Assembly (NCBI GenBank): GCA_020632995.1
Contig: JACKEN010000001.1
Coordinates: 265,140 to 329,139 of the forward strand
Reading direction: 5' to 3'
Origin: Deltaproteobacteria bacterium
GTDB taxonomy: Bacteria > Myxococcota > Kuafuiibacteriia > Kuafuiibacteriales > Kuafuiibacteriaceae
Length of the DNA stretch: 64,000 nucleotides
Below are positions 1-48,935 of this stretch, piece by piece. Both the position numbers and the translations under genes were made by a program. Position 1 is the stretch's first letter, and each line of letters begins with the position of its first letter. The notes beneath the pieces were generated by a model. It was not told where the DNA came from, searched no databases, and saw nothing but the letters and a program-made list of their open reading frames with translations.

Positions 1-2340
1 CGTCGACGAGGAGGGCTACGCCGCCGGACATGAAGGCGCGGTCGGTGGTGTCGGCGCGGCGGCCGAACGCGAAGCCCTGGCCGAGGGTGCTGTTGGCGCG
101 GCCGGGGCGCTGGGCGTTGAAGTAGAGGGGGTCGCCGCCCACGTCGGGGTCGCCGGGATCCATCAGGTACTGGTCGTCGCCGGTGAGGTCGTAGACCACG
201 CCGGCCGCGCGGGCGAACGCGAAGCCCTGGCTCATGGTGTAGGCGTGGCGCACGTCGTTCCCGCCCGCGTCGTAGAGCAGGCCGATGCCGAACGCGGCGG
301 CGCCCTGAGACGCGGCCTCGGCGAAGTACTGATCGTCGCCGCCCTCGTCGAGGAGCACGCCGACCCCCACCACGCCGGTGCCCTGGGACAGGCGCAGCGA
401 CTGGTAGTGATCGCGCCCCTCGCCGATGTCGTAGAGCACCGCGATCCCCATGCGCGCGCCGCCCTGGCGGGGCACCTGGCTCAGGCTGATCGGGCCGTTG
501 TCGAGGTCGGGGGGCCGGATGGTGCGGTAGCGCCCGCCCGCGTCGGAGGGGAGGCGCCCCTGATCGCCCGCGGCGGGGGTGACCACGTAGCCGTAGACGT
601 CGTCTCCGCCGAGGTCGACGAGCACGCTGGCGGAGTTGTCGGCGCTCTGGTTCCCGCCCGCGGGGACCCGGTACTCGTCGTTCCCGCCGAGGTCGACGAG
701 GAGGGCCCAGGCCCCGTCCATGCCGGGGGCGCGCGGGTCGTAGACGCCGCTGTCACCGTCGCCGATCGCCACCCGGCCGAGGGGGGTCTCGGCCGAGAAG
801 ACGAAGGTGGCGGTGCTGGTGGCCACGCTGCTGGTGGGCACCTGGGCGAAGCGTGACAAGTCGGCTTGCGCCAAGGCCTCGAGCACGTCGACCCCGGCCC
901 CGTAGAGCTCGCCGTAGTCGATCCCGTCGTTCAGCAGCTCGCGCACGCTGTCGGAGGCCGCGTTCAGCGCGCGGCCGTCGGCGCGGGGCGCGATCCAGGC
1001 GGGGCCGTAGCTCCACAGGTCGTCGCGGGTGCTCGCGGTGGGCACCGCGGCGCGCTGGGCGAGGTGGGCCCGGCGCACCGCGTCTACGACCTGGGCCACC
1101 GCCCGCTGCAGGTCGTCCGGCACGTCGGCGGCGTCGGCGGCGAGGGCGGCGCGGTCCGCGGTGCCGCCCGCCGCCTCGATGAGCGCGGCCACCGCCTCGG
1201 CCAGGGGCTCCGTCGCCGCCACCGGGCCGGCGGGGTGGGGGAGGGCGGGGCGGTCGAGGCGCGCCGCCATGCGGGCCACCATCTTGGCCGCGCGGGCGGG
1301 GTGCGACTCGGACAGGGTGGCGTCGGCGTCGAGGTCGGCCACCATGGCCTTCATCACCTCGAGCCCCGAGAGCGGCGCGTTGTGGGCCGCGTCGTACCAG
1401 GAGAGGCGGTAGGGATCGAAGACGATGTCCCCCGGGTTCGGGGCCCAGTCGAAGATGTCGAAGATCGCCCCGCAGCGGCTGCTGCCCACGCTCGTCAACA
1501 CCTCTTGCAGCAGGTCCCGCGTGCCCGCCGGCACCGGCAGACCGTGGCAGGCGCAGCGGGCCGAGAGGCAGGCGGGCCCGCGGAGGGTCTCGGCGCACTC
1601 GAAGCCCGCACCGCAAGCCGAGTTGTCACACCGGACCGCGCAGACCCCGGGCAGGCGCGGCTCGCTCCGCACGCACACCGCGCCGGGCGTGCCCGCGCAG
1701 TCGCCGTCCACCGCGCAGGGGGCCTCTGCCGGGTCGCCGGTGCGGGCGCAGAGCTCCGCCGCGGCGACCTGGGTCGCGCGGCAGACGTCGACCCCGTCGT
1801 CGCCCGGGAGGCAGGCGTAGCCGGCGGGGCAGGGGGCGGCCGCGTCGCAGCCCCGGGTGCAGTAGCCGAGCGCGAACGCGTCGCCCTCGCAGTGCTCGAG
1901 CCCCAGGATGCAACCCGTGTTGTCACCGAAGCAGCTCGTGCCGAGGCCGGTCTGCGGGGGGAGGCAGGTCGCCCCGGGGGGTACGCAGTAGTACTGCCCT
2001 TCGCCCTGGCTGATGTCGAAGCAGGTGAAGCCATCGGGGCAGCCCTCGAGGTCCTCGTCGCAGGCGTCGGCGCAGAACGTCTCGTCCCCCGCCCGCAGGC
2101 AGAGGCCGCCCGGGCACTCGGTGTCGCAGGGCATGCAGCTGCTCTGGCCGAAGCGCACCCCGGAGTCGGGGTCGGGGCCCCCGTCCTCGGGCTCGCCCGC
2201 GTCCTCGGGCTCGCCCGCGTCGGGCCCTGCGTCGGGGTGCACCCCGGTGTCGGCGGTCTCCGCCGCGTCCGGGAGGTCGACCTCCTCGCCACAGGCGAGC
2301 AGGGGCGTGACGAGGAGCGAGAGGAGGAGGAGTCGGCGCA
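1..2340 (-). CDS. Lipoprotein (5'-partial in window, C-terminus runs off the left edge). Signal peptide MRRLLLLSLLVTPLLACG is followed by a Cys-rich domain. Then come six or more repeats of about 40 aa, each with a D-x-G-G-[ND]-D-x-Y loop (FG-GAP-like, calcium-binding type).
   Basis: I translated the minus strand manually in the frame that gives a lipobox and the repeated DLGGNDEY, DLGGDDVY, DEGGDDQY, DAGGNDV and DLTGDDQY motifs. The GTG start at 2340 is preceded by a stop-free region. The + strand ORFs 245..856 and 866..2356 are R/G/A-rich antisense artefacts. Confidence 0.6.
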
Positions 2341-2370
2341 CCGCCCGCCAGCATAGCACCAGGACCTCGA

Positions 2371-3161
2371 TGTTGAGGCGGCCGGCCGGGCGTGCTGTCA
2401 TCGACGGCGCGGTGCTGGACCTGCACAACCACGTCCTGTTCGGCCTGGACGACGGCTGCCGCACCCTCGAGGAGTCCCAGGCCCTGTGCGCCCGGGCCCG
2501 GGCGGCGGGCCACGTGGGCTTCGTGGCCACCCCCCACATCCGCCCCGGGATGTTCGAGAACGACCCCGCGGGCATCCTGCGGCGGCGCGACGAGGCGCGG
2601 GCCACGGTGGAGGCAGAGGGCCTGGAGCTGCACCTGGGGGCCGAGTACTACTTTTGTCCCGAGCTCCTGGACGGGGCCCGGCAGCGGGCGCTCCTGACCC
2701 TGGGCGAGACCAGCCGCTTCGTCCTCGTGGAGCTCCCCACCACCCGGCTCCCGGTGCGCTACGACGAGGTCCTCTACGAGATCCGACTGGCCGGCTACGT
2801 GCCGGTCATCGCCCACCCCGAGCGCGCCCAGGGGCTGCAGGACGACTTGCCGAAGGTCCTCGGCGCCCTGCGCCAGGTGGAGGTCCTCCTGCAGCTCGAC
2901 CTCGGGAGCCTCATCGGGCACTACGGCCGCGGCGCCAAGAAGGCGGCGGAGGAGCTGGTGAAGCGCGGGGCCTACCACGTGGCGGCGGGCGATCTGCACC
3001 GCCCCGACGACGTGAAGGCCATCATCCCGCCCGCCCTCGCCCGGCTGGCCAAGCTCCTGGGCAAGCGCAAGGTCGGGCCCGAGGGTGTGCGCACCCTCAC
3101 CCTCGACAACCCCCGGCGGATCCTGGCCGACGCCCCGCTCACCGACCTCGTTCCCGTGTAG
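2371..3161 (+). CDS. PHP-domain protein-tyrosine phosphatase of the CpsB/YwqE family
   Basis: The N-terminus VLDLHNHVLFGLDDG matches the metal-binding HxH...DDG motif of CpsB/YwqE manganese-dependent tyrosine phosphatases. The ATG is at 2371. The first roughly 120 codons of track ORF 2013..3161 are antisense of the neighbouring gene. Confidence 0.65.
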
Positions 3162-3182
3162 CCCCCGGCGGTCGGCTGGGCT

Positions 3183-4232
3183 ATGAGGGCCCGAGTGGAC
3201 GAGGTGGTGGAGGTCGAGCGGCCCAGGGGCAGCCTCGTCGGCTGGCTGCTGAAGGGTGGGCTGGCCCTGGGCGCCTCGGTGGGGGCCTTCTGGTGGGCGT
3301 TCCACGACGTCGACCTCACCTCGGTGACCCAGGAGCTGAAAGGCTCCAGCGTCGCGGTCCTGCTCACCTTCCTGGCGGTGCAGCTCGCCCTGCATGGGCT
3401 GCGGGTGGTCCGTTGGGGCCTGTTGATCAAGCCGCTGGGGCCCGCCACCAACCGCGCGGTGTTCGCGGCGGCCAGCGTCGGCTTCCCCGCCACCTTCTTC
3501 CTCCCCCTGCGCCTGGGTGAGTTCGTGCGCCCGGTGATGATCTCCCGCTCCGGCGTGCCGTTCGCGGGGGCGATGGCGTCGGTCGTCGTCGAGCGGGTGG
3601 CCGACGGCGTGGTGAACCTCGGCCTGTTCTTCCTGTTCCTGCGGATGCTCCCCGCCTCCGCGCCGGTGCCGGACGACCTGCGCACCTTCTCGTTGGCCGC
3701 CCTGGTGCTCTTCGGCGGCGCCCTCGTCTTCCTCGTGCTGGCCTGCGTGGCGCGCCGCCCCGCCCTGAGCCTGGTCGAGCGCCTCCTGTCCCCGATCTCC
3801 GAGACCCTGGCCTCGCGGGTCCTGGGCCTGCTGGACACCTTCATCCACGGGGTGATGGTGCTGCGCACCCCGGCCCGGATCCTCGGGTTCGTGGGCCTCT
3901 CGCTCCTGTATTGGCTCCTGAACGGCCTGGTGACCTGGTACCTGGCCCAGAGCTACATCCCGGAGCTCCCGGTGCTCGCCGGGCCCTTCACGATCTCGGT
4001 GGTGGTCTTCGCGATCATGATCCCCGCCGGTCCCGCCTTCGCCGGCACCCTCGAGGCGGGCTGCCGCTTCGGCATGGCCCCCTTCGGCATCGACGCCTCC
4101 GCCGCCGCGGTGGTGGCCCTCGCCATGCACGCCCTCCAGCTCGTGCTGATGGCAATCCTGGCCGGCGCTGGCTTCATGGCCGCGGAGTCCCGGCAGACCC
4201 ACAAGCCGGCCCCCGGTCCTGACGCGCCCTGA
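3183..4232 (+). CDS. UPF0104 / lysylphosphatidylglycerol-synthase-TM-like integral membrane protein (flippase-like)
   Basis: About 8 predicted TM segments. The composition and length (349 aa) are typical of the LPG_synthase_TM/UPF0104 family. It follows the phosphatase with a 21-bp gap. Confidence 0.55.
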   Translation: MRARVDEVVEVERPRGSLVGWLLKGGLALGASVGAFWWAFHDVDLTSVTQELKGSSVAVLLTFLAVQLALHGLRVVRWGLLIKPLGPATNRAVFAAASVGFPATFFLPLRLGEFVRPVMISRSGVPFAGAMASVVVERVADGVVNLGLFFLFLRMLPASAPVPDDLRTFSLAALVLFGGALVFLVLACVARRPALSLVERLLSPISETLASRVLGLLDTFIHGVMVLRTPARILGFVGLSLLYWLLNGLVTWYLAQSYIPELPVLAGPFTISVVVFAIMIPAGPAFAGTLEAGCRFGMAPFGIDASAAAVVALAMHALQLVLMAILAGAGFMAAESRQTHKPAPGPDAP

Positions 4233-4291
4233 GGCAGTCCGGCGCTCTGGTTTGGCCCGCGAGGCGCGCCAGCGCTACCCTGCGAGGGCAG

Positions 4292-4705
4292 GTGGTCTCG
4301 CGCCGCGATCTCTTCCCGCCCACCCGGCGGGCCGACTCCCTGGAGCCCATCGGGGCTCAGACCCTCGAGATTGGCACCTATCGGGAGTTCCGCTTCCTCC
4401 GCCAGCTGGTGGCGGCGGTGCTCGTCCTCAACCTGCTGGACGGCGTGCTGACGATGGTCTGGATCACCTCCGGCGTGGCGAGCGAGGCCAACCCCTTCAT
4501 GGAGCGGCTGGCCCACGAGCAGCCCGTGCTCTTCATGGCGGTGAAGACGGCGCTGGTGGGCCTCGGGTCGTACGTGCTGTGGAAGCAGCGCAAGCGCCCG
4601 GCCGCGGTGGTGGCCATCTTCCTGTGCTTCCTCGCCTACTACTTCGTGCTGCTCTACCACCTGCAGGCCATGGACCTGCGGCTGCTCACGCGCTGGCTGG
4701 GGTGA
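4292..4705 (+). CDS. Small DUF5658-like membrane protein
   Basis: 137 aa with TM helices and an NLLDGVLT...EANPF motif characteristic of DUF5658. Confidence 0.45.
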   Translation: MVSRRDLFPPTRRADSLEPIGAQTLEIGTYREFRFLRQLVAAVLVLNLLDGVLTMVWITSGVASEANPFMERLAHEQPVLFMAVKTALVGLGSYVLWKQRKRPAAVVAIFLCFLAYYFVLLYHLQAMDLRLLTRWLG

Positions 4706-4715
4706 GGCGAGCCGC

Positions 4716-7439
4716 CTACCGGGTGACGGTGGCGGTGAAGGTGCCCGAGTTCCCGTCGGGATCGGTGAGGCTCAGCTCCAGCCAGTAGTCGCCGGCGGGG
4801 AGGGCGTCGAGGCCCGGCACGGTGACCGAGAAGCGGGAGGTCGGGCGGGTCCGCTCGTCTTCGTAGCGCGGGCTCCCGCTCGCGTCGGTGCCGACGAGGC
4901 GCCGGCGCAGCGCGTCCGCCACCGTCACCTGGGCGCTCCCGGTCACCGGGGTCTCGGCCCCGCCCCGGGCCACGAGCCGGCCGCTCGCGGTGACGGTGGT
5001 GCCGGCGGCGAGCGGGGCGCCGAGGCGGCTGGGGACGGCCTCGGAGCGCAGCACCAGGGCGTCGTCCTCCGCCTTCATGCCGTCGCCGTCCGGTGTCAAC
5101 GCGACTTGCGGCGGGTCGAGCACCACGCCCGCGAGCGCGCCGCCGCTCGCGGTGACCTCCTCGACCACGAGGTGGGCCGAGGGCACCAGCTCGAACGCGC
5201 GGGAGGTCACGGTGTAGTCGGACACCACGGCGCCATCAAAGGCCTTGCCCTCGACCGCGAGCCGATAGCGGCCGGCGGGGAAGTCGCGGCCCTCCTGCCA
5301 GCGCACCTGCCACTGGTGGTCGTCGCACTGGGAGCGGTTGCAGGACCCCTGGTAGGTCACCATCATCTCGAAGCCGGCGTCGTCGTAGGCCCACCCGCCG
5401 GGGCGCGCCACCGGGACGAACTGCCCGCCCTCCTCGCGCTCGAGGCTGACCCGCGGCAGGTCCGCCCCGGGGTGCCCGCCCTGCCAGACGAAGCGCACCT
5501 GGCCGAGCCGCTCCACCGTCTCGGGCACGTCCACCCGGATCTCGCTCGGATCGGGGGACGCGGTGAAGGGCACCCGGGCCAGCTCCTCGTCGGTGAGCGG
5601 CCAGTACATGGGCTTGAGGTTGCGGTTGTCGATCACCCGGGCCTCGGGCTCCTTCGCCAGCTCCCGGGCGAGCTTCACCGCGTTCTCCTGCAGGTACGGG
5701 CCGAGGCGCCAGCCCCAGATGTCGCGGGAGGGCTCGTAGCCGCCCTGGAGCCAGTCGTCCTCGTTGAGGAGGTAGAAGTGGTGGTCCTGGCTGTAGCCGA
5801 TCACCGCGGTGTCGTCGACGTCCGGCAAGACGGCTTGCACCATCTCCGCCGCGTCGCGGCCGAAGTTCGACAGGGGCTCGCCCGGCATGGTGGTGAAGGC
5901 CAGCTTGCCGAGGCGCAGCACCGAGATCACCGTCTTCTGGAACTGCGGGATGGGGTGGCCGCCGGTGAGGCACTCCACGCTGAACACGCAGTTGAGGTCG
6001 CCGTCGGTGAACTTGGTGGCGGGGTCGGAGTCCTCGGGCCGGCCCTCCACGCACTGGAACGCCCCGTAGCGGAAGTAGTCGGGGGTCGCCTCGCAGGAGA
6101 CGTCGCTGTCGTAGAACGCGCCCTCCCCGTAGCCGAGGATGTCGTGGGAGATCGGGATGCGGCCGGTGACCAGGCCCACCGGCACCTCGGCGCTGGTCTG
6201 GATGCCGTCCAGCGCCGGCTCGATCACCGCCCAGGCCCGGCGCCCCACCACCTGCAGCTGCTCGTAGTTGTTGTGCTGGTGGTCGTCGCCCGAGGGCGAG
6301 ATGTCGCCCGCGTTGCCCTGGATGTAGAAGCCGAGCACCGGGCGCCCATACTTCTTGCTCGCGGCGTGGGTGAGCTCCACCTCGACCCCGCCGCCGGCGT
6401 CGCCGGTGACCACCGGGCTGTCGAAGTCGAAGATGGTGCCGTGCATGCCGAAGTTGGTGAACACCGCGCGGGGCTCCCCGTTCAGGTCGTCCACCCGCAT
6501 CACCACCATGCGGTCGTCCTTCTTGAGGTAGCCGGGGAGGTTGTCGTTCTCGCCGCGGCGGTCCCGGTGGATGCGGTTCTCGGGATCGAAGTCGTCGAGC
6601 ACCGTGTAGCCGAAGCGCGCGGGCTGGCGGTCGGCGAGGGCGAGCTCCACCGCGTCGGCGAAGGAGTCGGTCATCCGCTCGAAGACCTCGCCGCTGAACT
6701 CGCCGTACCCGAAGAAGCCGAAGCCGAGGCCGACCACGAGGTGCCAGTACCGGGCGGGCTGGGCGTGGCTGTGGGGCGCGCTCTGGACGATGCGATCGCG
6801 CACGTCGATGCCGGTGCGCAGGGCCACCTTCTCGGCCGTGCGCGCGAGGAGGAAGTCGGTGCTCCAGCAGGTCGGGGTGCGCAACAGGACGAAGAGCTCC
6901 TTGCCGTCGTCGAACGCGGCGGCCCGGACCTCGGGGCGGTCGAACCACGAGTGGGAGCCGCCGAGGCTGTCCTGGTAGGGGGTGCGGGGCCCGAGGCGGC
7001 TGCCGTAGCCGGCGAGCGACACGCCCATCGGGAAGTCCAGCGCGACCCGGGCCAGCCCGACCTGGAGCTGCCCGCGGGCGTCGCCGGTAGCGGGCATCCA
7101 GCCGGTCGCGTCGACCGGGTAACGCTCGCAGACCCCGTCGAGGCAGTGCCCGTCCGCGGGGCAGTCGTCGTCGAGCACGCAGGCGGGCAGGCACCGGTTG
7201 GTGTCCTCGTTGCAGAAGCACTTGTCGCCCTCGCACACCGGGACGGTGCGGCAGTTCCTGCGCTCCACGCAGGACGCGGTGGCGTAGCACGCGCCCTCGT
7301 AGCAGACCTGCCCGGTCGGGCACTCGTCGTGGTAGCCGCACTCGTCCTTCGGCGGGTCGGGCGGGGCGTCCTCACCGGAGCAGGCCGTAGCCCCCACCAC
7401 AAGCCCGAGGAGCCCAGACATCAGCAGCCGCGCGTACAT
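4716..7439 (-). CDS. Neutral/alkaline ceramidase-family hydrolase. Secreted or lipoprotein, with an N-terminal Cys-rich (EGF-like) domain.
   Basis: The signal peptide MYARLLMSGLLGLVVGATAC is followed by 18 Cys in about 100 aa. Then come VSLAGYGSR and SAPHSHAQP motifs, which resemble the PLMGYA and THTHSGP motifs of neutral ceramidases. The ATG at 7439 is preferred over the track start at 7478. Confidence 0.55.
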   Translation of the reverse strand: MYARLLMSGLLGLVVGATACSGEDAPPDPPKDECGYHDECPTGQVCYEGACYATASCVERRNCRTVPVCEGDKCFCNEDTNRCLPACVLDDDCPADGHCLDGVCERYPVDATGWMPATGDARGQLQVGLARVALDFPMGVSLAGYGSRLGPRTPYQDSLGGSHSWFDRPEVRAAAFDDGKELFVLLRTPTCWSTDFLLARTAEKVALRTGIDVRDRIVQSAPHSHAQPARYWHLVVGLGFGFFGYGEFSGEVFERMTDSFADAVELALADRQPARFGYTVLDDFDPENRIHRDRRGENDNLPGYLKKDDRMVVMRVDDLNGEPRAVFTNFGMHGTIFDFDSPVVTGDAGGGVEVELTHAASKKYGRPVLGFYIQGNAGDISPSGDDHQHNNYEQLQVVGRRAWAVIEPALDGIQTSAEVPVGLVTGRIPISHDILGYGEGAFYDSDVSCEATPDYFRYGAFQCVEGRPEDSDPATKFTDGDLNCVFSVECLTGGHPIPQFQKTVISVLRLGKLAFTTMPGEPLSNFGRDAAEMVQAVLPDVDDTAVIGYSQDHHFYLLNEDDWLQGGYEPSRDIWGWRLGPYLQENAVKLARELAKEPEARVIDNRNLKPMYWPLTDEELARVPFTASPDPSEIRVDVPETVERLGQVRFVWQGGHPGADLPRVSLEREEGGQFVPVARPGGWAYDDAGFEMMVTYQGSCNRSQCDDHQWQVRWQEGRDFPAGRYRLAVEGKAFDGAVVSDYTVTSRAFELVPSAHLVVEEVTASGGALAGVVLDPPQVALTPDGDGMKAEDDALVLRSEAVPSRLGAPLAAGTTVTASGRLVARGGAETPVTGSAQVTVADALRRRLVGTDASGSPRYEDERTRPTSRFSVTVPGLDALPAGDYWLELSLTDPDGNSGTFTATVTR

Positions 7440-7557
7440 CGAGGGCGGGTTGTAGGCCGGGCCGGCTGGCTTCCGCAAGCGGACGCCTGACCCCCCGGCG
7501 CGGGGGCGCGGGATTTGACTTGCAAGCGACCGGGGCGCTGCTCAAACTGCCCCGGTC

Positions 7558-7848
7558 ATGTACGAAGCCACGCTCCACTGCCACGCCTGCGGCAACGCCA
7601 TCGAGCTCATCGACAAGGTGAAGCGGGCGGACACCTGCGAGCACTGCGGGGTGGACCTGCACTGCTGCAAGAACTGCGACTTCTTCGATCCGAACGTCCA
7701 CAACCAGTGCCGGGAGTCGACCACGATGTGGGAGCCCGACAAGGAGAAGGCCAACTTCTGCACCTACTTCATCCCGAGGAAGGGCGAGGTGGACCGCGAG
7801 AACAAGACCGCCGCCCTGTCTGCCCTCGAGAGCCTCTTCAAGAAGTAG
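7558..7848 (+). CDS. Small zinc-ribbon protein (Cys-rich; CxxC, CxxC and CCxxC motifs)
   Basis: 96 aa with 9 Cys in CxxC spacing. Codon usage is clean and GC is lower than the surroundings. It ends in a hydrophilic C-terminus. Confidence 0.5.
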   Translation: MYEATLHCHACGNAIELIDKVKRADTCEHCGVDLHCCKNCDFFDPNVHNQCRESTTMWEPDKEKANFCTYFIPRKGEVDRENKTAALSALESLFKK

Positions 7849-7931
7849 GGCGCCGGTTCACCGGCGGCTTCCAGAAACGAATTTCCTTGGCCCGCTCGCT
7901 GAGATTTGCTATCTCGGCACCCCTCTGGCGG

Positions 7932-8005
7932 TGGTGGGGTAGCTCAGCCGGTTAGAGCGAGGGTCTCATAAGCCCTAGGTCGGCGGTTCAAGTCCGCCTC
8001 CCACC
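7932..8005 (+). tRNA. tRNA-Met (anticodon CAT; could alternatively be a lysidine-modified tRNA-Ile2)
   Basis: Manual fold. The acceptor GGTGGGG pairs with TCCCACC. The D-arm is GCTC/GAGC. The anticodon stem AGGGT/GCCCT carries the loop CTCATAA. The T-arm is GGCGG/CCGCC with TTCAAGT. The discriminator is A and there is no encoded CCA. Confidence 0.85.
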
Positions 8006-8260
8006 ACGCCCCTTTCCCCTCCCAATCTGCGGTGCTCGAGGCGGCCAACGCGAGCCGTTACGCCTCGCCTCGTCTCCGTTCCAGGACCGAAACGACATCG
8101 AGCCGCCGGGCCCGATCTACCGCGCCACGCCGCGCCGCCGTGTCGATCTCGAAGCGGTGGCGCGGGCGCCGGGGCGTACCGGTGCCGTAGTGCGCGGGGG
8201 GACATTACCGGCCCGTGACGAAACCGTCTCTTTGGGCCATTCGCCCGAATCCGGGGATGC

Positions 8261-8276
8261 TGGCTTGGCGCTTGCT
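8261..8276 (+). promoter_or_regulatory. Candidate sigma-54 (RpoN) -24/-12 promoter, TGGCttggcgcTTGCt, upstream of the cytochrome gene
   Basis: GG and GC are spaced exactly as in the TGGCAC-N5-TTGC consensus. The site lies in a 550-bp non-coding region, 283 nt upstream of the start codon at 8559. Confidence 0.3.
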
Positions 8277-8558
8277 ATGCCGGCGAGTGCGCGAGTCCAA
8301 GAACCGCGCGAAGCCCCGCGGTGCGGGGCACAACGCCCGAGGTAGCACGGAGTATGAGGACGTCGGAGACAGGACGCTACGGAGTCGGAACCTCACGTGA
8401 GCGCTACTGTATTTCTGATCGTGGCCGATTCTCTGCACCCGGCAACACGAGGCCCCCGTCGGGGTCGTCCACCCGGCCGAAGGCAAGCCTGCAGGGGGTC
8501 CGAACTCCGAAGGCGCACCGACGACCGGGCAGACATGTCAGTCAGTGAGAGGTCATTC

Positions 8559-11051
8559 ATGCGCAAAAGGGTTCAAGTAGTCAGCGCCGTTCTCGCGCTC
8601 GCGCTTGCGGGATGTGCCGGAGACAAGGGCGACACGGGCGCCACGGGTGCCACCGGCGCCACAGGACCGGAGGGCCCGGCGGGTCCGACCGGCGCGACCG
8701 GCGTCACCGGTCAGGACGGCCAGGATGGTCAGAACGGCCAGAATGGTCAGGACGGCCAGGATGGTCAGGACGGGCAGAACGGCCAGGACGGGCAGAACGG
8801 GCAGGACGGCTTGCCCGGCGCGCTCACCGTGAACCTGGCGGCCGAGGCGGTCTCCGCCCTCGAGATCACGATCGACAGCGTGTCCATGGGCGCGGTGTCC
8901 ACCATCGAGTTCACCGCGGTCGACGGCGCAGGCCGTGGCGCGGTCGGCCTCAAGGGCGGTAGCAGCGGCAACGTTCGCACTGCGCTCGCCAAGCTCCTCC
9001 CTCCACCTGCGAGCGGCGACCCCGACCACTGGCAGAGCATGTTCCTCCGGGCCCGGGGCACCGCCCCGAACCAGGTCACGCAGGCGACGAACGATCGCGG
9101 CGCCCTGGTGGACCACCTCGACGGCACCTACACCTATACCTTCGCGGGTGACGTGACCGCGGTGACCGACCCGGTCACCGGCGCTGCCGTGACCTGGGAG
9201 CCCACCCGCACCCACCGCCTGGTCCTGCAGGCCAGCGGCAGCGTGAACGGCAACTCGCTCCCGGCGGTGAACGCGGTGATGGACTTCGTGCCCGATGGCA
9301 GCGCAGTCACCGAGACCCGCAAGATCATCGAGACCAAGAACTGCAACGAGTGCCACGGGCGCATCGTCGCCCACGGCAGCCGCTACGACGCGGGCTACTG
9401 CGTGGTGTGCCACAACACCAACACCCGCAGCCTCGGCACCGACCTCACCATCGCGGACATGTCCTACATGATCCACGGCATCCACGGTGCTGGCTACCGC
9501 GCCGCTCGCGGCGGCCCGGACTTCATCATCGGCGGCGACAACTTCGCCGAGGTGACCTACCCGCAGGACCTGCGGCACTGCCGTAAGTGCCACGAGCAGA
9601 GCGCCGACGCCCCGGACGGCGACAACTGGAAGGCCGTGCCCAACAAGAACTCTTGCGGCGGCTGCCATGAGAACGACACCTACCGCGCCCACGTCGACCC
9701 GCAGACCAACGCCTCGTGCGTGACCTGCCACGGCCCGACCGCGGCCATCGCGCTGTGCGGCCCGACCAACAACGCCAGCTGCACGATCGAGTCGGTCCAC
9801 CTCACCGTGAACCCCACCACCAACAACCCGCAGGTCCCTGCCGGTCTGTCGGTGATCGAGTACGACGTGTCCGAGATGACGATCGACGCCAACAGCCAGG
9901 CCAACATCGTGTTCAAGGTGCTGCGTGACGGCGCCTCGGTCGACCTGATCACCCCGCCCGCGGACCTCACCGGCGGCCCGAGCTTCCTGCTCGCGTACGC
10001 CATGCCGCAGGACGGCATCGACGCCCCCGCCGACTACAACAACATGGGCCAGAGCGCGGCCCAGCCCGTCACCGTGTCCATCGCGAACCTGCGCGCGGGC
10101 ACCGCGGGCACCCTGACCGGCCCCGACGCCAACGGCTACTACACCGCGGTCGTCACGAGCTTCACGTTCCCCGTCGGCTCCACCATGCGTGCGGTGACCC
10201 TGCAGGGCTACTTCACCCAGGTGACGACCAACCTCGGCAACGTGGCGCGCCACGCGGTCGCGGCGGTCAAGGCGGCCACCGGCGACACGGCCCGTCGCGC
10301 CATCGTGGACTCGGCCAAGTGCGCCGGCTGCCACGAGTGGTTCGAGGCCCACGGCGGCAACCGCGTCTACGAGGTCCAGGCCTGCGTGATGTGTCACAAC
10401 CCGAACCTGTCCTCCGGCGGCCGCTCCGGTGACCCGGCGCGCATCGACGGCGACACCCAGGCCGAGCTCGACAACATCGCGTTCATCAACACCCACCTGT
10501 CCGGACGTGACCCGGTGGCTCCGTGGAACCCGGGCCCCATCGACGGGACGAACCCGCTGACCTACCCCGAGGAGTCGAACAACCTGAAGGACATGATCCA
10601 CGGGATCCACTCGTCGGCCATGCGGAGCACGGACTTCTCGTTCGTCCGCTACCGCAGCAACAACTTCTATCCCTTCAACTTCGCTGAGGTGACGTTCCCG
10701 AACGACCCCAACAACTGCGAGGCCTGCCACATCGCGGGGACCTACGACACCAACCTGCCCGCGGGCGAGCTGGCGTCGACCCAGATCATCCCCAGCACGG
10801 TCCCGAACGACCGAGCCTCCATCACGGCGGCTCGTGCCTCGGTGCCGAACGGCGAGGACATCGTGAAGAGCGCTGGCGCTGCGGCGTGCAGCAGCTGTCA
10901 CGACAACACCCAGGCCCTGAACCACATGAAGCTGAACGGCGCGTACATCAACGGGCCGCGCAGCGGGTTGGCCGCGGGCGACCTCGAGACCTGCAACGTC
11001 TGCCACGGCGCTGGCCGCACCGCGGACGCCGAAGTGGCCCACGGGAACTGA
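8559..11051 (+). CDS. Decahaem c-type cytochrome lipoprotein with an N-terminal collagen-like (Gly-X-Y)22 stalk
   Basis: ATG at 8559 with a GAGAGG RBS 7 nt upstream. The signal and lipobox are MRKRVQVVSAVLALALAGC. The collagen-like region is GDKGDTGATG...GQDGQNGQDGLPG. There are ten CxxCH motifs: CNECH, CVVCH, CRKCH, CGGCH, CVTCH, CAGCH, CVMCH, CEACH, CSSCH and CNVCH. Confidence 0.85.
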   Translation: MRKRVQVVSAVLALALAGCAGDKGDTGATGATGATGPEGPAGPTGATGVTGQDGQDGQNGQNGQDGQDGQDGQNGQDGQNGQDGLPGALTVNLAAEAVSALEITIDSVSMGAVSTIEFTAVDGAGRGAVGLKGGSSGNVRTALAKLLPPPASGDPDHWQSMFLRARGTAPNQVTQATNDRGALVDHLDGTYTYTFAGDVTAVTDPVTGAAVTWEPTRTHRLVLQASGSVNGNSLPAVNAVMDFVPDGSAVTETRKIIETKNCNECHGRIVAHGSRYDAGYCVVCHNTNTRSLGTDLTIADMSYMIHGIHGAGYRAARGGPDFIIGGDNFAEVTYPQDLRHCRKCHEQSADAPDGDNWKAVPNKNSCGGCHENDTYRAHVDPQTNASCVTCHGPTAAIALCGPTNNASCTIESVHLTVNPTTNNPQVPAGLSVIEYDVSEMTIDANSQANIVFKVLRDGASVDLITPPADLTGGPSFLLAYAMPQDGIDAPADYNNMGQSAAQPVTVSIANLRAGTAGTLTGPDANGYYTAVVTSFTFPVGSTMRAVTLQGYFTQVTTNLGNVARHAVAAVKAATGDTARRAIVDSAKCAGCHEWFEAHGGNRVYEVQACVMCHNPNLSSGGRSGDPARIDGDTQAELDNIAFINTHLSGRDPVAPWNPGPIDGTNPLTYPEESNNLKDMIHGIHSSAMRSTDFSFVRYRSNNFYPFNFAEVTFPNDPNNCEACHIAGTYDTNLPAGELASTQIIPSTVPNDRASITAARASVPNGEDIVKSAGAAACSSCHDNTQALNHMKLNGAYINGPRSGLAAGDLETCNVCHGAGRTADAEVAHGN
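8709..8810 (+). repeat. Tandem 9-bp repeat (about 11 units, GGY-CAG-RAY) encoding (GQD/GQN)n inside the collagen-like region
   Basis: The units ggtcaggac, ggccaggat, ggtcagaac and ggccagaat repeat head to tail. Confidence 0.8.
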
Positions 11052-11174
11052 GCCTGGTCCAGGCCCCCAACGGACGCCGCCAGGTCACCCCCTCGGGGCC
11101 TGGCGGCCTCCCTCTCTCCCCCACCTTCCGCGCCCAGCTGACGGCGGCGCCGGTTCATGCTTGAAGGTGTCGTG

Positions 11175-12023
11175 ATGCGTTCGACGCTCCTCTCCCTCCT
11201 CTTCGTGGTGGGCTGCGCCCAGGCCGCGGATACCAAGCCCGCGCCCGCCGCCCCGGCCCCAGAGGCGCCCGCGACCGGTCCCCTCGCGGTGGCGGTCCGG
11301 GTGAACGGCCGCCCGATCACCGAGGCCGAGGTGGCGCTCCGGATGAACGAGCGCGGCCCCGGCAAGGCCAAGCTCACCCGGGACGAGGCCCTCGAGCGGG
11401 TGATCGAGCTGGAGCTCCAGGCCCAGGCGGCGGAGGGCATGGGCGCCGACAAGGAGACGTCCTTCCTGGCCGACATGGCCCTGTTGCAGGCCAAGGTGAA
11501 CGACGCGCGCCGCACCGCGCTCGCCAAGAGCTATCGGATGCGGTCGGTCGATGGGTTGCCGCCGCCGAGCGAGGCCGAAGTGCAGGCCTACTTGACAGAG
11601 CACGAGGCCCGGCTCGACGTCGAGCTCAAGCTCCGTCGGGTGCGCGCTCGCACCCGGGCCGACGCGGAGGCGGCGCTCGCCGCGGTCCGCGCGGGCAAGC
11701 CCTTCGACGAGGTGGCCCACGAGTTCCCGGGCGAGACCTTCGACGTCGGCCCCCTCGGCTTCGACACCATCCCCGACCAGTGGTGGCGCGCCCTCGAGGG
11801 GGTGGAGCCGCCGGGGTTCGCCGAGGTGGTGCCGATGGGCGAGGGCCGGTTCGAGGTGCTGCAGCTCCTCGAGCGCAAGAAGGTCCCGCGCCCCGCCCCC
11901 GAGGAGCTCGCGCGGCGGGCGGCGGCGGTGCTCCACGCCCAGGCCTTCGAGGCCCGGCGGGCCACCCAGGCCGCCGAGATGCGGAAGGCCGCCCGGGTGG
12001 AGATCCCCGGCCAGGCCCCCTGA
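11175..12023 (+). CDS. PpiC/parvulin-type peptidyl-prolyl isomerase lipoprotein (SurA/PrsA-like chaperone)
   Basis: The signal and lipobox are MRSTLLSLLFVVGC. The C-terminal region EFPGETFDVGPLGF...VVPMGEGRFEVLQL resembles a parvulin domain. The RBS is GAAGGTG. Confidence 0.5.
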   Translation: MRSTLLSLLFVVGCAQAADTKPAPAAPAPEAPATGPLAVAVRVNGRPITEAEVALRMNERGPGKAKLTRDEALERVIELELQAQAAEGMGADKETSFLADMALLQAKVNDARRTALAKSYRMRSVDGLPPPSEAEVQAYLTEHEARLDVELKLRRVRARTRADAEAALAAVRAGKPFDEVAHEFPGETFDVGPLGFDTIPDQWWRALEGVEPPGFAEVVPMGEGRFEVLQLLERKKVPRPAPEELARRAAAVLHAQAFEARRATQAAEMRKAARVEIPGQAP

Positions 12024-24146: not shown

Positions 24147-25658
24147 GTGGCGCGGCCCGACGCGGACATCATCGTGGTGGGGGCGGGCCCCGCCGGGAGC
24201 GCGGCGGCGGCCCGGCTGGCCGCCTTCGGGCACCGGGTCCTGATCCTGGAGCGGGCGCGCTTCCCGCGGCCGCGCATCGGGGAGTCCCTGCCCCCCAAGG
24301 TGGACGACCTCCTCCAGGTCCTCGGGGCGGCCGAGGCGGTGGCAGCGGCCGGCTTCGCCCGGATGCGGGGCACCGTGGTGGCCCGGGGCGGGGACGAGGC
24401 GCCCCTGTTCCACCCCTTCGATCCGGCGGGGGGCCGCCGCGGCTACCAGGTGGAGCGGGGGCGCTTCGACAGCCTGCTGCTGGAGCGGGCCCGGGCGCTG
24501 GGGGCCGAGGTGCGGGCCGCGGCGGCGGCGGAGCTCGGGTGGGCCGGCCCGCTTCGGCAGGTCAGCTTGCGCGAGGGTGGGGCCCTCACCGCGCGCTTCG
24601 TGGTCGACGCGAGCGGGGCGGCGGGGTGGGGGGCCCGGGCCCTGGGCCTGCGCAGCAAGGAGCCGGTGCGGACGGTGGCCCTGGCCGGGTACTGGGCGGG
24701 GTGCCGCCTCCCGGAGCTGCGCTCCGCTGGCGTAGTCGAGGCCACCGCGACCTTCTTCGAGATGCTCCCCGACGGGTGGATCTGGTCGGTGCTCCGGCAG
24801 GATGGCTTGCGGAACGTCACCCTCGGTCTCGACGCGGGCCGGGTGAAGGACCCGGAGGTCCTGCCGCTCGAGCTGTACCTCGACACGGTGCGCGCCTCCG
24901 CCCTCGTCGGGCCGATGCTCGGGCCGGCCCGGCTCGAGGGCGGGCTGTCGGCCCACGACGCCACCTGGACCCGGGCCGAGCGCTTCGTGGCCGACGGGAT
25001 CCTGTTCGCGGGCGACGCCGCCGCCACCATCGACCCCCTGACCTCGCAGGGGGTGTTCAAGGCGATGAGGTCCGGCATCGTGGCCGCCTCGGTGGTCAAC
25101 ACCGTCCTCGCGCGGCCCGAAGACGCGGCGCTCGCCCTCGAGCACTACGCCGAGGCCGAGGCCGACCTGGTGGCCCACTACGACGCGGTCGCGCGCAGCT
25201 TCTACCGGGCCGCGCCGTACGCCGACGCGCCGTTCTGGCGGGCCCGCACCCGCGACGGGGGGCCCGACGGCGGCGCGCCGGACGCGGACGCCGGTCGCGC
25301 CCGGCGGGAGGCGCTCGAGGCCCTGGCGCGGCACGTGGGCGGGCAGCGCCTGCACCTGACCGCGGCGCCGGGCCTGGCCCTCGAGGTGAGGGCGGTGGTG
25401 CGAGGGGCCTTCGTGGTGCGGGCGCGGGTGGCGGTGTTCGAGGGGCGGGTGGTGGACGTGGCGGGGCTGGATCCGCAAGCCCTCCTGCCGCTCCTCGACG
25501 ACCGCCCGATGGCCAGCGTGTTCGACCGCTACGCGGCGGCGGTGGGGCAGGGGCCCTCGGCCCAGCTGGGCCGCCAGCTCATGAGCGGGCTCCTGGCCCT
25601 GGCCGAGCGCGGCGCGCTCACGACGCGCGAGGCGACGCCCCCTGGGCCAGGGCGTTGA
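24147..25658 (+). CDS. FAD-dependent oxidoreductase (flavin-dependent halogenase or geranylgeranyl-reductase-like family)
   Basis: DIIVVGAGPAGSAAAARLA...ILER is the Rossmann FAD-binding motif. FAGDAAATIDPLTSQG is the GD motif. A GTG start at 24147 is proposed. The upstream part of the track ORF is non-coding. Confidence 0.7.
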   Translation: MARPDADIIVVGAGPAGSAAAARLAAFGHRVLILERARFPRPRIGESLPPKVDDLLQVLGAAEAVAAAGFARMRGTVVARGGDEAPLFHPFDPAGGRRGYQVERGRFDSLLLERARALGAEVRAAAAAELGWAGPLRQVSLREGGALTARFVVDASGAAGWGARALGLRSKEPVRTVALAGYWAGCRLPELRSAGVVEATATFFEMLPDGWIWSVLRQDGLRNVTLGLDAGRVKDPEVLPLELYLDTVRASALVGPMLGPARLEGGLSAHDATWTRAERFVADGILFAGDAAATIDPLTSQGVFKAMRSGIVAASVVNTVLARPEDAALALEHYAEAEADLVAHYDAVARSFYRAAPYADAPFWRARTRDGGPDGGAPDADAGRARREALEALARHVGGQRLHLTAAPGLALEVRAVVRGAFVVRARVAVFEGRVVDVAGLDPQALLPLLDDRPMASVFDRYAAAVGQGPSAQLGRQLMSGLLALAERGALTTREATPPGPGR

Positions 25659-28600
25659 GCTTCAACAGCTCGATGAGCTCCAATAGCGGCCGGCCCAGGG
25701 CGCGGACCTCTTCCAGGTTCCGGGCCGAGGTGTGCACGAGCGGCACGAGCGAGGCCTCGAGCGCGGCGAGCTGGCGCGTCAAGATGTCTTGCAGCTCCTT
25801 CGGCGCCTCGGTCTTCAGCGCCACGCTGAGCTTGGGCTGGGCGAGGGCCTGCACCGCCTTGTCCAGGCGCTCGAGGTGCGGCACCAGCCACGCCTGCCCC
25901 TCGCCGGCCCGGGCCGCCTCGACCGCCGCCTGCTCTTGGGCCTGTGCCACCGCGGCCTCGATGCGACCCTTGATGCCCTCGAGCTGCTCGCCGAGCGCGC
26001 CGAGGGTCGAGGTCATCCGGGTCACCGGATCGTCGTCCCCGCCCCCCTGTACCTGGAGCCGCCGGAAGTCCTTCTTGATCTGGTCCCAGCGCGCCGTCTC
26101 GGCCGCGGTCATGATCTTGCGCAGCTCGGCCAGCTTCAAGAGGTTCGCCTCCGCCCCCGAGGTGAGGGTCTGGGACTCGCCCTGGTAGTGGTCGGTGACC
26201 AGGCGCTGCAGCTCCTCGTCGTTCATCGCCGCCACCGTCTTCTCGGCCAGCTTGTTCATGTTGCGGTACGAGCCCTGGAGCTGGAACCGCGGCTCGGTCC
26301 GGAAGCGATCGTCCTGCGACGCGCTCTGGATGTACTGCAGGTTCACCTTCAGCAGGACGTCCTGCACCTTGAACAGGCGCTGGAGCACCTGGGTGATCTC
26401 CTCGATCTCCACCCCCGAGTAGCTGTGCTGGAACTCGGTCTGGGGCACCTCGTCGCCCCGCGCCATCTTGATGAACAGGTGCATGTCCGGGAGCGAGCGG
26501 GCCGCCACCGGGGCGAGGGCGGGGTTCGAGGTGAGGGCGTTCTCGATGTACGAGAGCGCGAAGACCTCATCCTTGCCCTCCAGGATGTCGCCGAGGTTGT
26601 AGGTGTCGGCGCGGTTCGCGAGCATGTCCGGGATCTGGAACTTCTCGCCCGACTCCGTATACGGGTTGCCCGCCATCACCACGCAGAACTTCTTGCCCCG
26701 CAGGTCATAGGTGCGCGTCCGCCCGTTCCACACGCCCTCGACTCGGCGCTGCGCGTCGCACAGCGAGATGAACTTCTGCAGGAACTCCGGGTTCGTGTGC
26801 TGGATGTCGTCGAGGTAGAGCATGACGTTGTTCGCCATCTCGAAGGCCAGGTTGACCTTCTCGACCTCCTGCCGCGCGGTCGCGTTGGGCGCCTCCGCCG
26901 GGTCGAGCGAGAGCACCTGGTGCCCGAGCGAGGGGCCGTTCACCTTCATGAACACCATGCCCAGGCGGCTCGCCATGTACTCCATCAGCGTGGTCTTGCC
27001 GTAGCCGGGCGGCGAGACGAGCAGGAGCAGACCCATCAGGTCGGTGCGCTTGTTCTCGCCCGCCGCGCCCAGCTGCTTGGCGAGGTTGTCGCCGATCATC
27101 GGCAGGTACACGTCGTTGATCAGCCGGTTGCGGACGAAGCTGGTGAGCACCCGGGGCTTGAACTCGTCCAGGCGCAGCCGGCTCCGCTCGCGCTCGAGCA
27201 CCGCGTGCCGCGCCTCCCGGAACGCCGCGTAGCCCGGCACCCGGACCTCGATGTAGCGGGTGAGCCGCGACAGGAACTCGTCGAGGCGCAGGTCGAGGAC
27301 CCGGCTCTGGACGCGAGGGTGCTGGCCAAGCAGGTCGGTGACCTGGGCCCGGGTGAGGGCCGCGCTCTCGGTGCGGGGCAGGTCCGGGGTCAGCAGGAGC
27401 ACCGCGGCCTCGACGAGGGCGGGCCGGAGCGCCGCCACCTCGTCCGCGTGCACGTTGTCGAGGAAGGCCAGGGTCCAGGCCCGCGCAAGCTCCAGCCGCT
27501 CCTTCACCGACTCCGCGAGGGCCGACAGGTCCTCCTCGAACGCGGCCCGGGACTGCTCGAGCTCGAGGTGCTCGAGCAAGGCAGCCTTCAAGCGCACCGC
27601 GTCGAGGCCGGTGGTGAAGCTGGGACGCTCCGCCACCAGCTCCTCCATCAGGTAGCGCCCGGCCATGCGCGCGTCCGCGGCGAGGTGATCGATGCCCTCG
27701 GCGGCGAGGAACGCGGCCACCGCGGCGCCCAGGTCCTGGGCCAGCGCCTCCTCGGCCTGGCTGTAGCGGAACGCCTTCCTCAGGCGCCCCAGCGACTGGG
27801 CGCGGCGCTGGAAGACCGCCCGGGCCTCCTTGTCGGTGAACCGGGCCCAGAACAGGCACGCCCACGCCCGAGGAGTGGGGGCGAAGCGGAGCAGGCCCGC
27901 GCTCTGCCGGATCGCGAGCAGGCGCTCCAGGATCCGGGCGGCGTCCGCGTCGTGCAGGCCCCGCTCGTAGCCCTCGTCGTAGCGGTCCGCCGCGTAGGCG
28001 CGGACCTTCTGCAACAGGCCCTGCTCGTCCCGCGCCGACTCGAGGAGGTCGGGCATGGTCAGGCCCTTCGCCCCGCGCTCGGCGTCGAACAGGATCGAGG
28101 CGGCGAGGTACTCACCCCGGTAGACCTCGTCGGTCTCGGAGACCAGCTGCTGCTGCCAGTACTCCTTGGTGGCGCCGAAGGCCTCGTCGGTGATCTTCTC
28201 GAAGAAGTCGGTGCCGGTGAGGTGGAGGTACATGTCCTCGTCCCGCGGCACCATGGTGAGCTCGAAGCTCTGGGTGTTGACCGTGAAGCGGTGGCGCCCC
28301 AGCTTGATGACGTTGTCGCCGCCCTCGAAGAGGTCCTGCTTGTCACGCAGGTTGCGGACCGCGTCCTGGCGCGCGCTCTTCACCCGCGCCTCGATGTCGT
28401 CGGCCTTGACGGTGTCGCCCAGGGCCCTGAGCTGCTCCACCAGCTGGCGGAGCTTCATCACCATCGGGTCGCTCGCGAAGTACGCGTTCAGCTCGTCGTC
28501 GGTCTTGAAGGTGCGGGTGCGGCGCTGCACGCCCTCCAGGATCCGGGTGGCGGCGCTGCCGAGGTTGGCGGCGCGGCGCTGCCGCTCGTCCATGAGCTGC

Positions 28601-47739: not shown

Positions 47740-48278
47740 TGCTCCGCCTGCTGGTCCTGGCCGCGTCCCTCACCCTCGCCACCCCCGCCCTGGCCGCCGA
47801 GCCCGACCCCGACGCCCTCGCGGTCGGCCGCCCCGCCCCCAACTTCACCCTCAAGACCCTGAACCCGGAGCGCACCAAGAGCCGCCTCTTCGCCCTCAGG
47901 ACCCTGGTGGGCGACGACGCCAAGGCCAAGAAGACGGTGGTCCTCTCCTTCGCCGCCTCCTACTGCGAGCCCTGCAAGCGCGAGCTGAAGGAGCTGGCCC
48001 CCATGGCGGCGGACTTCGCCAAGCACGACGTGGTCCTGGCGGTGGTCATCATCGACACCGAGCCCGACGCGATCGCGGAGATGAAGAAGCTCACCGTCGA
48101 CGAGCTGAACCTGGCGTACCCGGTGCTGTCGGACAGGTTCGGGGTGCTGGCGCGCAGGTATCAGGCCGAGCAGCTGCCGAAGACGGTGGTGGTGGGCCCG
48201 GATGGGTTGGTGAAGTATGTGGCGACCGGGTTCAAGAAGGACGCGTTGCAGAAGTTGAGGGCTCAGGTGGGGCTGTAG
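47740..48278 (+). CDS. Periplasmic thiol:disulfide oxidoreductase (TlpA/ResA-like thioredoxin fold)
   Basis: The signal is MLRLLVLAASLTLATPALA. The active site is SFAASYCEPCKRE (CxxC). Confidence 0.7.
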
Positions 48279-48516
48279 GTTGCGGAGTTGTGGCGGGGCG
48301 GAGTCCAGAAGAGGAAGGCCCGCCTAAACCCTGGGAATCAGGCTCCTTTTCGGACTTGATCGAACCGATTCCGTCCAAGTGATTTCAGAGAGTTACGCGC
48401 GTTCTGATCCAGATTGTGGATCCCGCCCGTTGTGGAGTTATCGAGCAGGATTTGGCTGGCTGCGTGGCCGATGCAGCGACTTGCAGGCCAGACCAGTCTC
48501 GACAATAATGGCGCCA

Positions 48517-48917: not shown

Positions 48918-48935
48918 TCGATGACTTCCATCGGT

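Follow-up and report, generated by a model that had tools for sequence, protein, structure and literature searches.

A predicted OmcA/MtrC-family decaheme lipoprotein of a Myxococcota bacterium carries the long Gly-X-Y tether typical of its clade

We analyzed a gene at positions 8559-11051 of a 64,000-nucleotide stretch of DNA (hereafter the window; positions 265,140 to 329,139 of contig JACKEN010000001.1, assembly GCA_020632995.1) from a Deltaproteobacteria bacterium placed in the Myxococcota. As judged from family models and a predicted structure, its product is a member of the OmcA/MtrC family of decaheme lipoproteins, in which 22 collagen-like Gly-X-Y triplets stand between the predicted lipid anchor and the cytochrome. 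Sequence comparisons indicate that a Gly-X-Y run starting from the lipidated cysteine is the majority state of this family, and that 22 triplets is a normal length for the Myxococcota clade, this tether being an expanded form of a family trait. Overall, we consider it likely that the protein is a surface decaheme reductase of the OmcA/MtrC family held on an acidic, length-variable Gly-X-Y spacer.

The gene is a single open reading frame (ORF) of 830 codons on the forward strand, which translates to 830 residues. On retranslation we recovered the ORF, the lipobox, the 66-residue (Gly-X-Y)22 segment, and the ten CxxCH heme-binding motifs at the coordinates and in the form given by an initial annotation of this DNA, which had been made from the letters alone. 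The protein begins with MRKRVQVVSAVLALALAGC and has a lipobox (LAGC) with its cysteine at position 19; the equivalent start in the homolog P0002 is MSKRIQTLGAILAIALAGC, and most family members have a lipobox at the equivalent place. The triplets run without a break over residues 21-86 (GDKGDTGATGATGATGPEGPAGPTGATGVTG(QD/QN)x11 GLP), and the CxxCH motifs, which on recounting again came to ten, follow in a 5+5 layout (residues 262, 281, 341, 366, and 387, then 588, 609, 720, 777, and 812). There are 23 cysteines in total, and outside the CxxCH motifs only Cys19, C400, and C408. Both the number of heme motifs and the length of the Gly-X-Y run are far above chance: when the protein was shuffled 20,000 times, the CxxCH count had a mean of 0.02 and a maximum of 2, and the longest Gly-X-Y run had a mean of 2.7 and a maximum of 7 triplets. 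The reading frame is coding, given its G+C content at third codon positions (GC3) of 0.90 in a genome of 72% GC, its Shine-Dalgarno-like site, and the conservation of its motifs in 28 homologs; the CxxCH motifs therefore belong to a coding frame and not to a noncoding one.

Assignment to the OmcA/MtrC family, which the initial annotation had proposed, is supported by the family hidden Markov model (HMM), the predicted fold, the 5+5 heme layout, and the lipobox. The NCBIfam model TIGR03507 scored 420.1 bits against a cutoff of 209.3, with positions 7-672 of its 672 matching residues 113-828, and the Pfam model for domains II and IV of MtrC/MtrF (PF22113) matched twice. At domain I, the OmcA-like_N model (PF22112) reached 30.6 bits against a cutoff of 27, while MtrC-MtrF_N (PF22111) stayed under its cutoff. 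Sequence matches in the PDB were to MtrF (5e-37), OmcA (2e-26), and MtrC (4e-23). Residues 88-830 were modeled with AlphaFold2 from an alignment of 28 homologs; the model had a mean predicted local distance difference test score (pLDDT) of 87.5 and a predicted template modeling score (pTM) of 0.80, and its domains follow the order beta, helical, beta, helical. This four-domain fold bears out the expected likeness of the heme domain to MtrC and OmcA, since the best 16 matches found by Foldseek in the PDB were all OmcA, MtrC, UndA, or MtrF, with template modeling (TM) scores of 0.54-0.70 for the 15 full-length chains among them; the best structural match was OmcA (E of 5e-31, TM of 0.60-0.65). 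All 10 CxxCH motifs and 11 non-motif histidines vary little or not at all among the 28 homologs, and these 11 histidines would be enough for bis-His ligation of each heme.

Our homolog search used only the cytochrome part as its query and was thus unbiased toward collagen. Among the 120 nearest homologs, 31 (about a quarter) have a precomputed Pfam Collagen match; in these nearest homologs the Gly-X-Y runs begin at or beside the lipobox cysteine, and the longest comprises 48 triplets. When 1.84 billion cluster representatives were searched exhaustively with HMMER, 2,093 relatives were returned, and we counted tether lengths in the best 150 of them, which yielded 104 full-length proteins with a lipobox (representatives at 50% identity). 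Runs of at least 4 triplets were present in 73 of these 104 representatives, runs of at least 6 in 59, runs of at least 10 in 29, and runs of at least 20 in 3. Given that at least 4 triplets occur in 73 of 104 representatives and that 22 are typical of the clade, the fusion of collagen-like and cytochrome sequence is not the unusual arrangement that the initial annotation took it for. The run begins at the lipobox glycine in 29 of 59 long-run proteins, and of the 59 proteins that have at least 10 triplets, 44 contain one unbroken run.

The register of the triplets with the lipid anchor is visible across the family. Over 181 members the consensus of the mature N terminus is C-[S/G/A]-G-[D/G/S]-D-G-x-x-G-x-x-G, with glycine at each of positions +2, +5, +8, and +11 in 51-59%. 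The mature N termini of Shewanella OmcA (GSD GKD GED GKP GVV) and MtrF (GSD GDD GSP GEP GKP) contain five triplets each, and both align in HMMER with the last triplets of the 22-triplet tether. We rejected a recent gain of a foreign collagen module, because the tether is family-wide, keeps step with the lipobox, and can be aligned to the N termini of the Shewanella proteins.

Tether length differs among groups. When the longest run per protein was taken in 80 loci from species genomes, the median was 19 triplets in Myxococcota (range, 5-34) against 3-11 in other phyla, with 9 in Geothrix (9-9), 6.5 in Nitrospirota (3-10), 6 in Desulfobacterota/Geobacterales (0-11), 5 in Beta/Gammaproteobacteria (3-9), and 4 in Planctomycetota (0-8). 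The short Myxococcota values come from proteins with several runs split by other modules, and Myxococcota runs typically have 15-34 triplets. Only 1 of 62 heme-free putative lipoproteins of the same loci has at least 6 triplets near its lipid-bearing cysteine, whereas OmcA/MtrC paralogs and an 8-heme protein family in these loci do carry tethers. The architecture of a decaheme cytochrome on a tether is already common in sequence databases under the family name. Literature searches on collagen-like or Gly-X-Y tethers in OmcA/MtrC or other multiheme cytochromes found no paper discussing the tether, and the mentions of "collagen" that were met (a remark on the circular dichroism of PgcA and a table of collagen-binding domains) were unrelated.

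Other proteins of these loci combine triplets with further modules. A different cytochrome of ~780-800 residues, with eight hemes, 19-20 triplets, and a Pfam Collagen match, is encoded beside OmcA/MtrC genes in two loci (L032 4845-7175, minus strand; L029 7040-9394, minus strand), which suggests that the tether is common to at least one other multiheme family in Myxococcota. In many Myxococcota paralogs (P0049, P0039, P0043, P0047, and others), short runs within the N-terminal 50-250 residues alternate with two-Cys modules, SCTVTDNGDGTKTISCTDGT, that match the Pfam family PF19079, "collagen-flanked surface repeat." In P0028, P0191, and P0032, an acidic module, CWDLNANGVGDV...DC, is inserted after the run.

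The tether of the window's protein is acidic and poor in proline. It has 4 prolines among its 66 residues and 10 acidic residues to 1 basic one (net charge, -9), and half of it is GQD/GQN. Pro occupies 14% of its X positions, and Thr and Asp occupy 32% each of its Y positions. Bacterial collagens average 19% Pro at X and 31.6% Thr at Y, with polar and charged residues in place of hydroxyproline (PMC8968730); the values at X and Y here are near those averages, yet the segment as a whole is proline-poor and acidic. Its description as collagen-like stands, although the Pfam Collagen threshold is passed marginally (32.0 versus 27.2 bits), and the NCBIfam Scl/Lcl models gave subthreshold matches (47 bits versus a cutoff of 325). 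Across 135 runs in the family, Asp and Glu far outnumber Lys and Arg, and residues are placed asymmetrically, with Pro, Glu, and Leu favored at X and Gln, Asn, Asp, and Thr at Y. As a triple helix, 66 residues would span 18.9 nm (0.286 nm per residue), and they would span ~20 nm as a single strand in the polyproline II (PPII) conformation.

At the DNA level, the second half of the tether, made up of the 18-bp array (Table 1), has expanded recently. All four glycine codons are used within the tether (GGC 11 times, GGT 6, GGG 3, and GGA 2). The tether is also rich in A/T-ending codons (GGT, GGA, GAT, AAT, and ACA) although the genome has a GC3 of ~0.95, and these codons lower the DNA repeat identity of the array. 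RTX (repeats-in-toxin)-like nonapeptide calcium repeats were considered for GQDGQNGQD and rejected, since the RTX consensus, GGxGxDxUx, has no period of three.

Of the two roles that the initial annotation suggested for the spacer, holding the heme domain away from the membrane and trimerization, either may apply. We weighed two readings of its structure. The tether could be a monomeric, extended or flexible polyanionic linker, the periodicity of which arises incidentally from 9-bp slippage and a preference for the PPII conformation, on a cytochrome that is a monomer as in Shewanella; we give this reading an even chance of being correct. Tandem arrays of 9- and 18-bp units make up much of the stalk, its length varies from 0 to 48 triplets in the family and from 15 to 24 among close relatives at 51-77% identity, and the short tethers of Shewanella are compatible with function. 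The stalk is also acidic and proline-poor, and it has no trimerization domain, all of which would suit a linker. An unconstrained linker, however, should gather register-breaking indels, and yet long, diverged, nonrepetitive runs keep perfect register; nor would the X/Y asymmetry be expected of a random coil.

Alternatively, the tether may form a true collagen triple helix, in which three lipid-anchored chains make a rod of ~19 nm by 1.5 nm with three decaheme domains (30 hemes) at its tip, and to this we assign a slightly less than even chance. The corresponding "lollipop" or "bouquet" form is seen in Scl, BclA, and C1q. The glycine register is perfect over 22 triplets here and over up to 48 in homologs with diverse, nonrepetitive X/Y residues, glycine is retained through four synonymous codons, and unbroken single runs predominate among the proteins with at least 10 triplets (the 44 of 59 given above). 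The X/Y asymmetry of the 135 runs and the 32% Thr at Y resemble bacterial collagens (PMC8968730), the Pfam Collagen model passes its threshold both here and in the 31 of 120 nearest homologs, and paralogs alternate their runs with PF19079 modules. In addition, three N termini anchored in one membrane plane could set the register of the chains, and a gene for a parvulin peptidyl-prolyl isomerase (PPIase) adjoins the cytochrome gene in six long-stalk loci.

These points meet several of opposite sign. We detected no trimerization or nucleation domain, and the run is flanked by the lipid-bearing cysteine on one side and an OmcA-type domain I on the other, although joint anchoring in the membrane might take the place of such a domain. 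Soluble Shewanella forms and the family members with solved structures behave as monomers, and MtrCAB has a 1:1:1 composition. Many members, including functional Shewanella proteins, have only 3-6 triplets, too few to keep a helix stable when hydroxyproline is lacking. The composition of this tether (4 prolines in 66 residues, a net charge of -9, and half of its length GQD/GQN) also speaks against a helix, the likelihood of which is somewhat higher for proline-rich homologs (P0014 and P0034 are examples) than for the present protein. In either case, the triple-helix reading refines the explanation of the protein as a surface reductase on a spacer and does not displace it. We further propose, only tentatively and as something more doubtful than the helix itself, that the long-stalk tethers of Myxococcota are real triple helices and that their cytochromes form homotrimeric 30-heme "bouquets" on rods of 13-40 nm, tuned in length by slippage.

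The PPIase gene deserves mention in this connection as a possible partner of the cytochrome gene, since relatives show the two side by side again. A PpiC-type gene adjoins the cytochrome gene in six Myxococcota-type loci (L083, L082, L004, L038, L027, and L012), each with 19-24 triplets, and L083 is the same region as the window in an independent assembly. Since the six loci are mutually related, the adjacency is a lead and not a statistic. Prolyl isomerization limits the folding of eukaryotic collagen, and the PpiC-type protein may be a dedicated foldase.

Surface exposure, electron transfer, and a spacer role for the tether are suggested by analogy with Shewanella OmcA and MtrC, and the mechanism that we propose is as follows. 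The protein would be made as a lipoprotein, with its hemes attached in the periplasm and its N-terminal lipid-bearing cysteine anchoring it to the outer membrane. Once displayed on the surface, its ten bis-His hemes would deliver electrons from respiration to acceptors that are insoluble or extracellular, such as minerals, shuttles, or neighboring cytochromes. The tether would serve as an acidic, extended spacer that could hold the heme domain, or let it swing, as far as ~19-20 nm from the anchor, and slippage of 9- and 18-bp units in frame would change the length of this spacer. Such a spacer could carry the heme domain past the lipopolysaccharide or exopolysaccharide layer, placing it between an electron source embedded in the membrane and either a mineral or a neighboring cytochrome. 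An acidic tether would be repelled by anionic lipopolysaccharide, and the heme domain would sweep a large volume around the anchor. The MtrC and OmcA of Shewanella are lipid-anchored, diffuse laterally, and transport electrons by collision and exchange (PMC9171617).

Several observations weigh against this proposal. A rigid 19-nm stalk would put the hemes out of range of direct electron transfer with a membrane conduit, so that a hinge, collisions, or shuttles would be required to charge them. Domain III has no cysteine between residues 409 and 587 and thus lacks the CX8-15C disulfide, which in Shewanella clades is conserved and gates flavin binding (PMC4486940). That disulfide is a Shewanella-clade trait and lies outside the HMM definition of the family, and the sole non-heme cysteine pair of the present protein, C400-X7-C408 in the domain II-III linker, is confined to its nearest relatives and is not kept in the wider alignment. 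Surface exposure, heme loading, and metal reduction of this particular protein are predictions, and an independent assembly carries a 1-base deletion within the gene (Table 1). Finally, in all six frames of the window there is no other ORF with a CxxCH motif, Pfam scans of 29 of the other predicted proteins found no MtrB/PioB or other porin family and no MtrA or Pcc partner, and most Myxococcota loci have no other multiheme gene within +/-10 kb.

The conduit that the initial annotation associated with cytochromes of this type is therefore not found in this window, and we infer that the electron source must be encoded outside it. The closest homologs are isolated as well, P0003 lying beside a lactate permease gene and a lactate-dehydrogenase-like gene and P0002 among unrelated genes. 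An exception is L004, in which a homolog at 52% identity, with 21 triplets and the same 3' PpiC gene, ends a same-strand multiheme cluster (577-9300, plus strand). This cluster contains 7-, 8-, and 12-heme cytochromes, a 1066-residue fusion of an 8-heme cytochrome with cytochrome b561 (Ni_hydr_CYTB), an NHL-repeat tetraheme protein, and a 415-residue protein without a family match that is possibly a porin. By analogy, the cluster is what would be expected of an extracellular electron-transfer pathway, and it would link the homolog to electron transfer. The L004 record is labeled "uncultured Enterobacteriaceae" but has a GC content of 70%, and the label is probably wrong.

We also considered whether the cytochrome might face the periplasm, sitting on the inner leaflet of the outer membrane as part of an electron relay, with the stalk spanning part of the periplasm. 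The inner leaflet of the outer membrane is the default destination of the Lol pathway, and the residue at +2 is Ala. A length of 19 nm is on the order of the periplasmic width, and the Pfam scans of 29 other proteins of the window showed no type II secretion genes and no conduit genes. Nevertheless, the characterized family members (Shewanella OmcA, MtrC, and MtrF) are all surface-exposed (PMC9171617), and a nonconducting stalk would part the hemes from the outer membrane and leave no outward route, which makes this arrangement improbable.

The deletion noted above comes from Logan contig L083 (run SRR32609001), which is 99.5% identical to the window over 5.9 kb. The initial annotation had raised the prospect of a frameshift parting the collagen region from the cytochrome; a 1-bp deletion does exist in L083, but it falls inside domain I, and the junction between stalk and cytochrome is intact. 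L083 has no indel in the stalk and reproduces the count of (Gly-X-Y)22. That the intact ORF is an artifact or a pseudogene, with the stalk and the start of domain I in one frame and the heme domains in another, is very improbable: L083 is indeed 1 base short, and its gene calls are of 198 and 647 residues, but the unbroken frame of the window aligns residue for residue with dozens of homologs over the site, GC3 remains at a coding level, the deletion lies in a G3C3G4 run of an unpolished single-run assembly with clustered mismatches at its ends, and the break is within domain I instead of between stalk and cytochrome. In our judgment the base was lost through an assembly error; at most, the difference would reflect a variant allele.

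Table 1. Coordinates of the cytochrome gene's features and of PpiC-type genes (window positions, except where a locus is named)
Feature	Coordinates	Strand	Remarks
Shine-Dalgarno-like GAGAGG	8547..8552	+	Read from sequence; 6 nt 5' of the ATG at 8559
Lipoprotein signal peptide, lipobox LAGC	8559..8615	+	Cys19 is the predicted lipidated first mature residue; +2 is Ala, not Asp
Collagen-like tether, 22 Gly-X-Y triplets, residues 21-86	8619..8816	+	PF01391, 32.0 bits (cutoff, 27.2)
18-bp (two-triplet) tandem array encoding GQD/GQN	8709..8810	+	Tandem Repeats Finder: 5.7 copies, 88% matches
Domain I, OmcA-like N-terminal beta-barrel, ~residues 87-255	8817..9323	+	PF22112 and AlphaFold2 strands, model residues 3-156
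1-base deletion in L083, GGGCCCGGGG run	~9050..9053 (L083 ~2899)	+	ORF there split into 198 aa + 647 aa (P0001)
Domain II, pentaheme (262, 281, 341, 366, 387), then CX7C pair	9324..9803	+	Motifs, Pfam, alignment, AlphaFold2
Domain III, second beta-barrel, ~residues 416-580, Cys-free	9804..10298	+	AlphaFold2 strands, model residues 346-486
Domain IV, pentaheme (588, 609, 720, 777, 812) and stop	10299..11051	+	PF22113 over residues 580-828; motifs invariant
Parvulin/PpiC-type PPIase lipoprotein gene	11157..12023	+	PF13145 Rotamase_2; 105 bp 3' of cytochrome gene; then serS
PpiC-type gene, L004	12346-13164		
PpiC-type gene, L082	12703-12876		
PpiC-type gene, L038	8865-9611		
PpiC-type gene, L027	8735-9541		
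PpiC-type gene, L012	8708-9574		

The rest of the window looks ordinary for a myxobacterium, with many Ser/Thr kinases, a WD40-kinase fusion, serS, tyrS, and ahcY. On the 5' side of the cytochrome gene lie a ceramidase-like lipoprotein gene on the opposite strand, a Cys/His-rich ORF of 96 codons without a Pfam family (7558-7848, plus strand; conserved in L083), and a tRNA-Met (CAT) gene (7933-8007, plus strand), followed by ~550 bp without an obvious gene up to the cytochrome start. An Rfam search for an rRNA or riboswitch in the long upstream gap returned only this tRNA-Met and one other tRNA, and in 7850-11300 no predicted promoter or terminator exceeded the expectation from shuffled sequence. 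At ~48000-52800, the GC content falls to 57%, compared with ~72% elsewhere, and three long ORFs (499, 475, and 456 residues) have no Pfam match; no rRNA or other Rfam family was found there, and the stretch may be a horizontally acquired island. A protein of 1755 residues (25618-30885, minus strand) combines an AAA domain with DUF7902 and DUF3686 ("ATPase involved in DNA repair," 694 bits). Two proteins without a significant family match, of 715 and 257 residues, come next on that strand, and the three may constitute a large uncharacterized system.

Set beside known systems, the protein has most in common with Shewanella OmcA (PDB 4LMH), MtrC, MtrF, and UndA, with which it shares a lipoprotein signal, ten CxxCH motifs in a 5+5 layout, and the order of barrel, pentaheme, barrel, and pentaheme domains. 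Within that group it is closest in kind to OmcA, in that domain I fits OmcA-like_N and not MtrC-MtrF_N, and its mature N terminus opens with Gly-X-Y triplets as those of OmcA and MtrF do. It differs from the Shewanella proteins in its low identity to them (15-20% in structural alignments), in its 22 triplets versus their 5, in having no CX8-15C in domain III and only a CX7C pair in the domain II-III linker, and in its setting, which is not beside mtrAB or another cytochrome gene and is in a Myxococcota-like genome of 72% GC. Database entries from Myxococcota named "OmcA/MtrC family decaheme c-type cytochrome" (for example, P0002, P0003, and P0004, with 77%, 66%, and 64% identity) share its lipobox, 15-24 triplets, four domains, and all of its heme motifs, and some share the adjoining PpiC-type gene; they differ from it in the number of triplets and in the X/Y sequence of the stalk. 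Literature searches found no experimental study of these entries. The exact protein sequence had no record in the collection that we searched, and the best match among GTDB species genomes was at 61% identity, in a metagenome-assembled genome from Myxococcota.

The tether also invites comparison with bacterial collagens and with other spacers of surface cytochromes. Like Streptococcus Scl1/Scl2, Bacillus BclA, and Legionella Lcl, the protein has an unbroken, hydroxyproline-free run of a few dozen Gly-X-Y triplets, with Thr-rich Y positions and polar or charged residues, and with a globular domain predicted to lie at the surface. Those proteins have a dedicated trimerization domain and are anchored through LPXTG or in the exosporium, whereas here the anchor is a predicted N-terminal lipid and the run leads into a cytochrome, which is not known to trimerize. 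Geobacter PgcA resembles it as a multiheme extracellular cytochrome with low-complexity, PPII-prone repeats that space its redox domains (PMC5732950). PgcA, however, is a triheme protein with unrelated heme domains, and its (PT)n repeats are not Gly-X-Y and lie between the heme domains rather than at a lipid anchor.

Taken together, our results show a family-wide pattern, present in most members and in at least seven phyla, in which a Gly-X-Y tether lies in register with the lipid anchor and lengthens from 3-5 triplets in Shewanella and Geobacterales to 15-48 in Myxococcota. The length of this tether would set the possible distance between the membrane and the terminal reductase. It therefore bears on how such reductases could reach minerals through lipopolysaccharide or exopolysaccharide, on how surface cytochromes meet their electron source, and on whether they act as monomers or oligomers. 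If the long tethers of Myxococcota do prove to be triple helices, trimers with 30 hemes would constitute an undescribed architecture for extracellular electron transfer, and the short Shewanella tether would be what remains of this oligomerization device, or else its nucleus. The tether pattern may thus be of modest, testable interest to the field of extracellular electron transfer.

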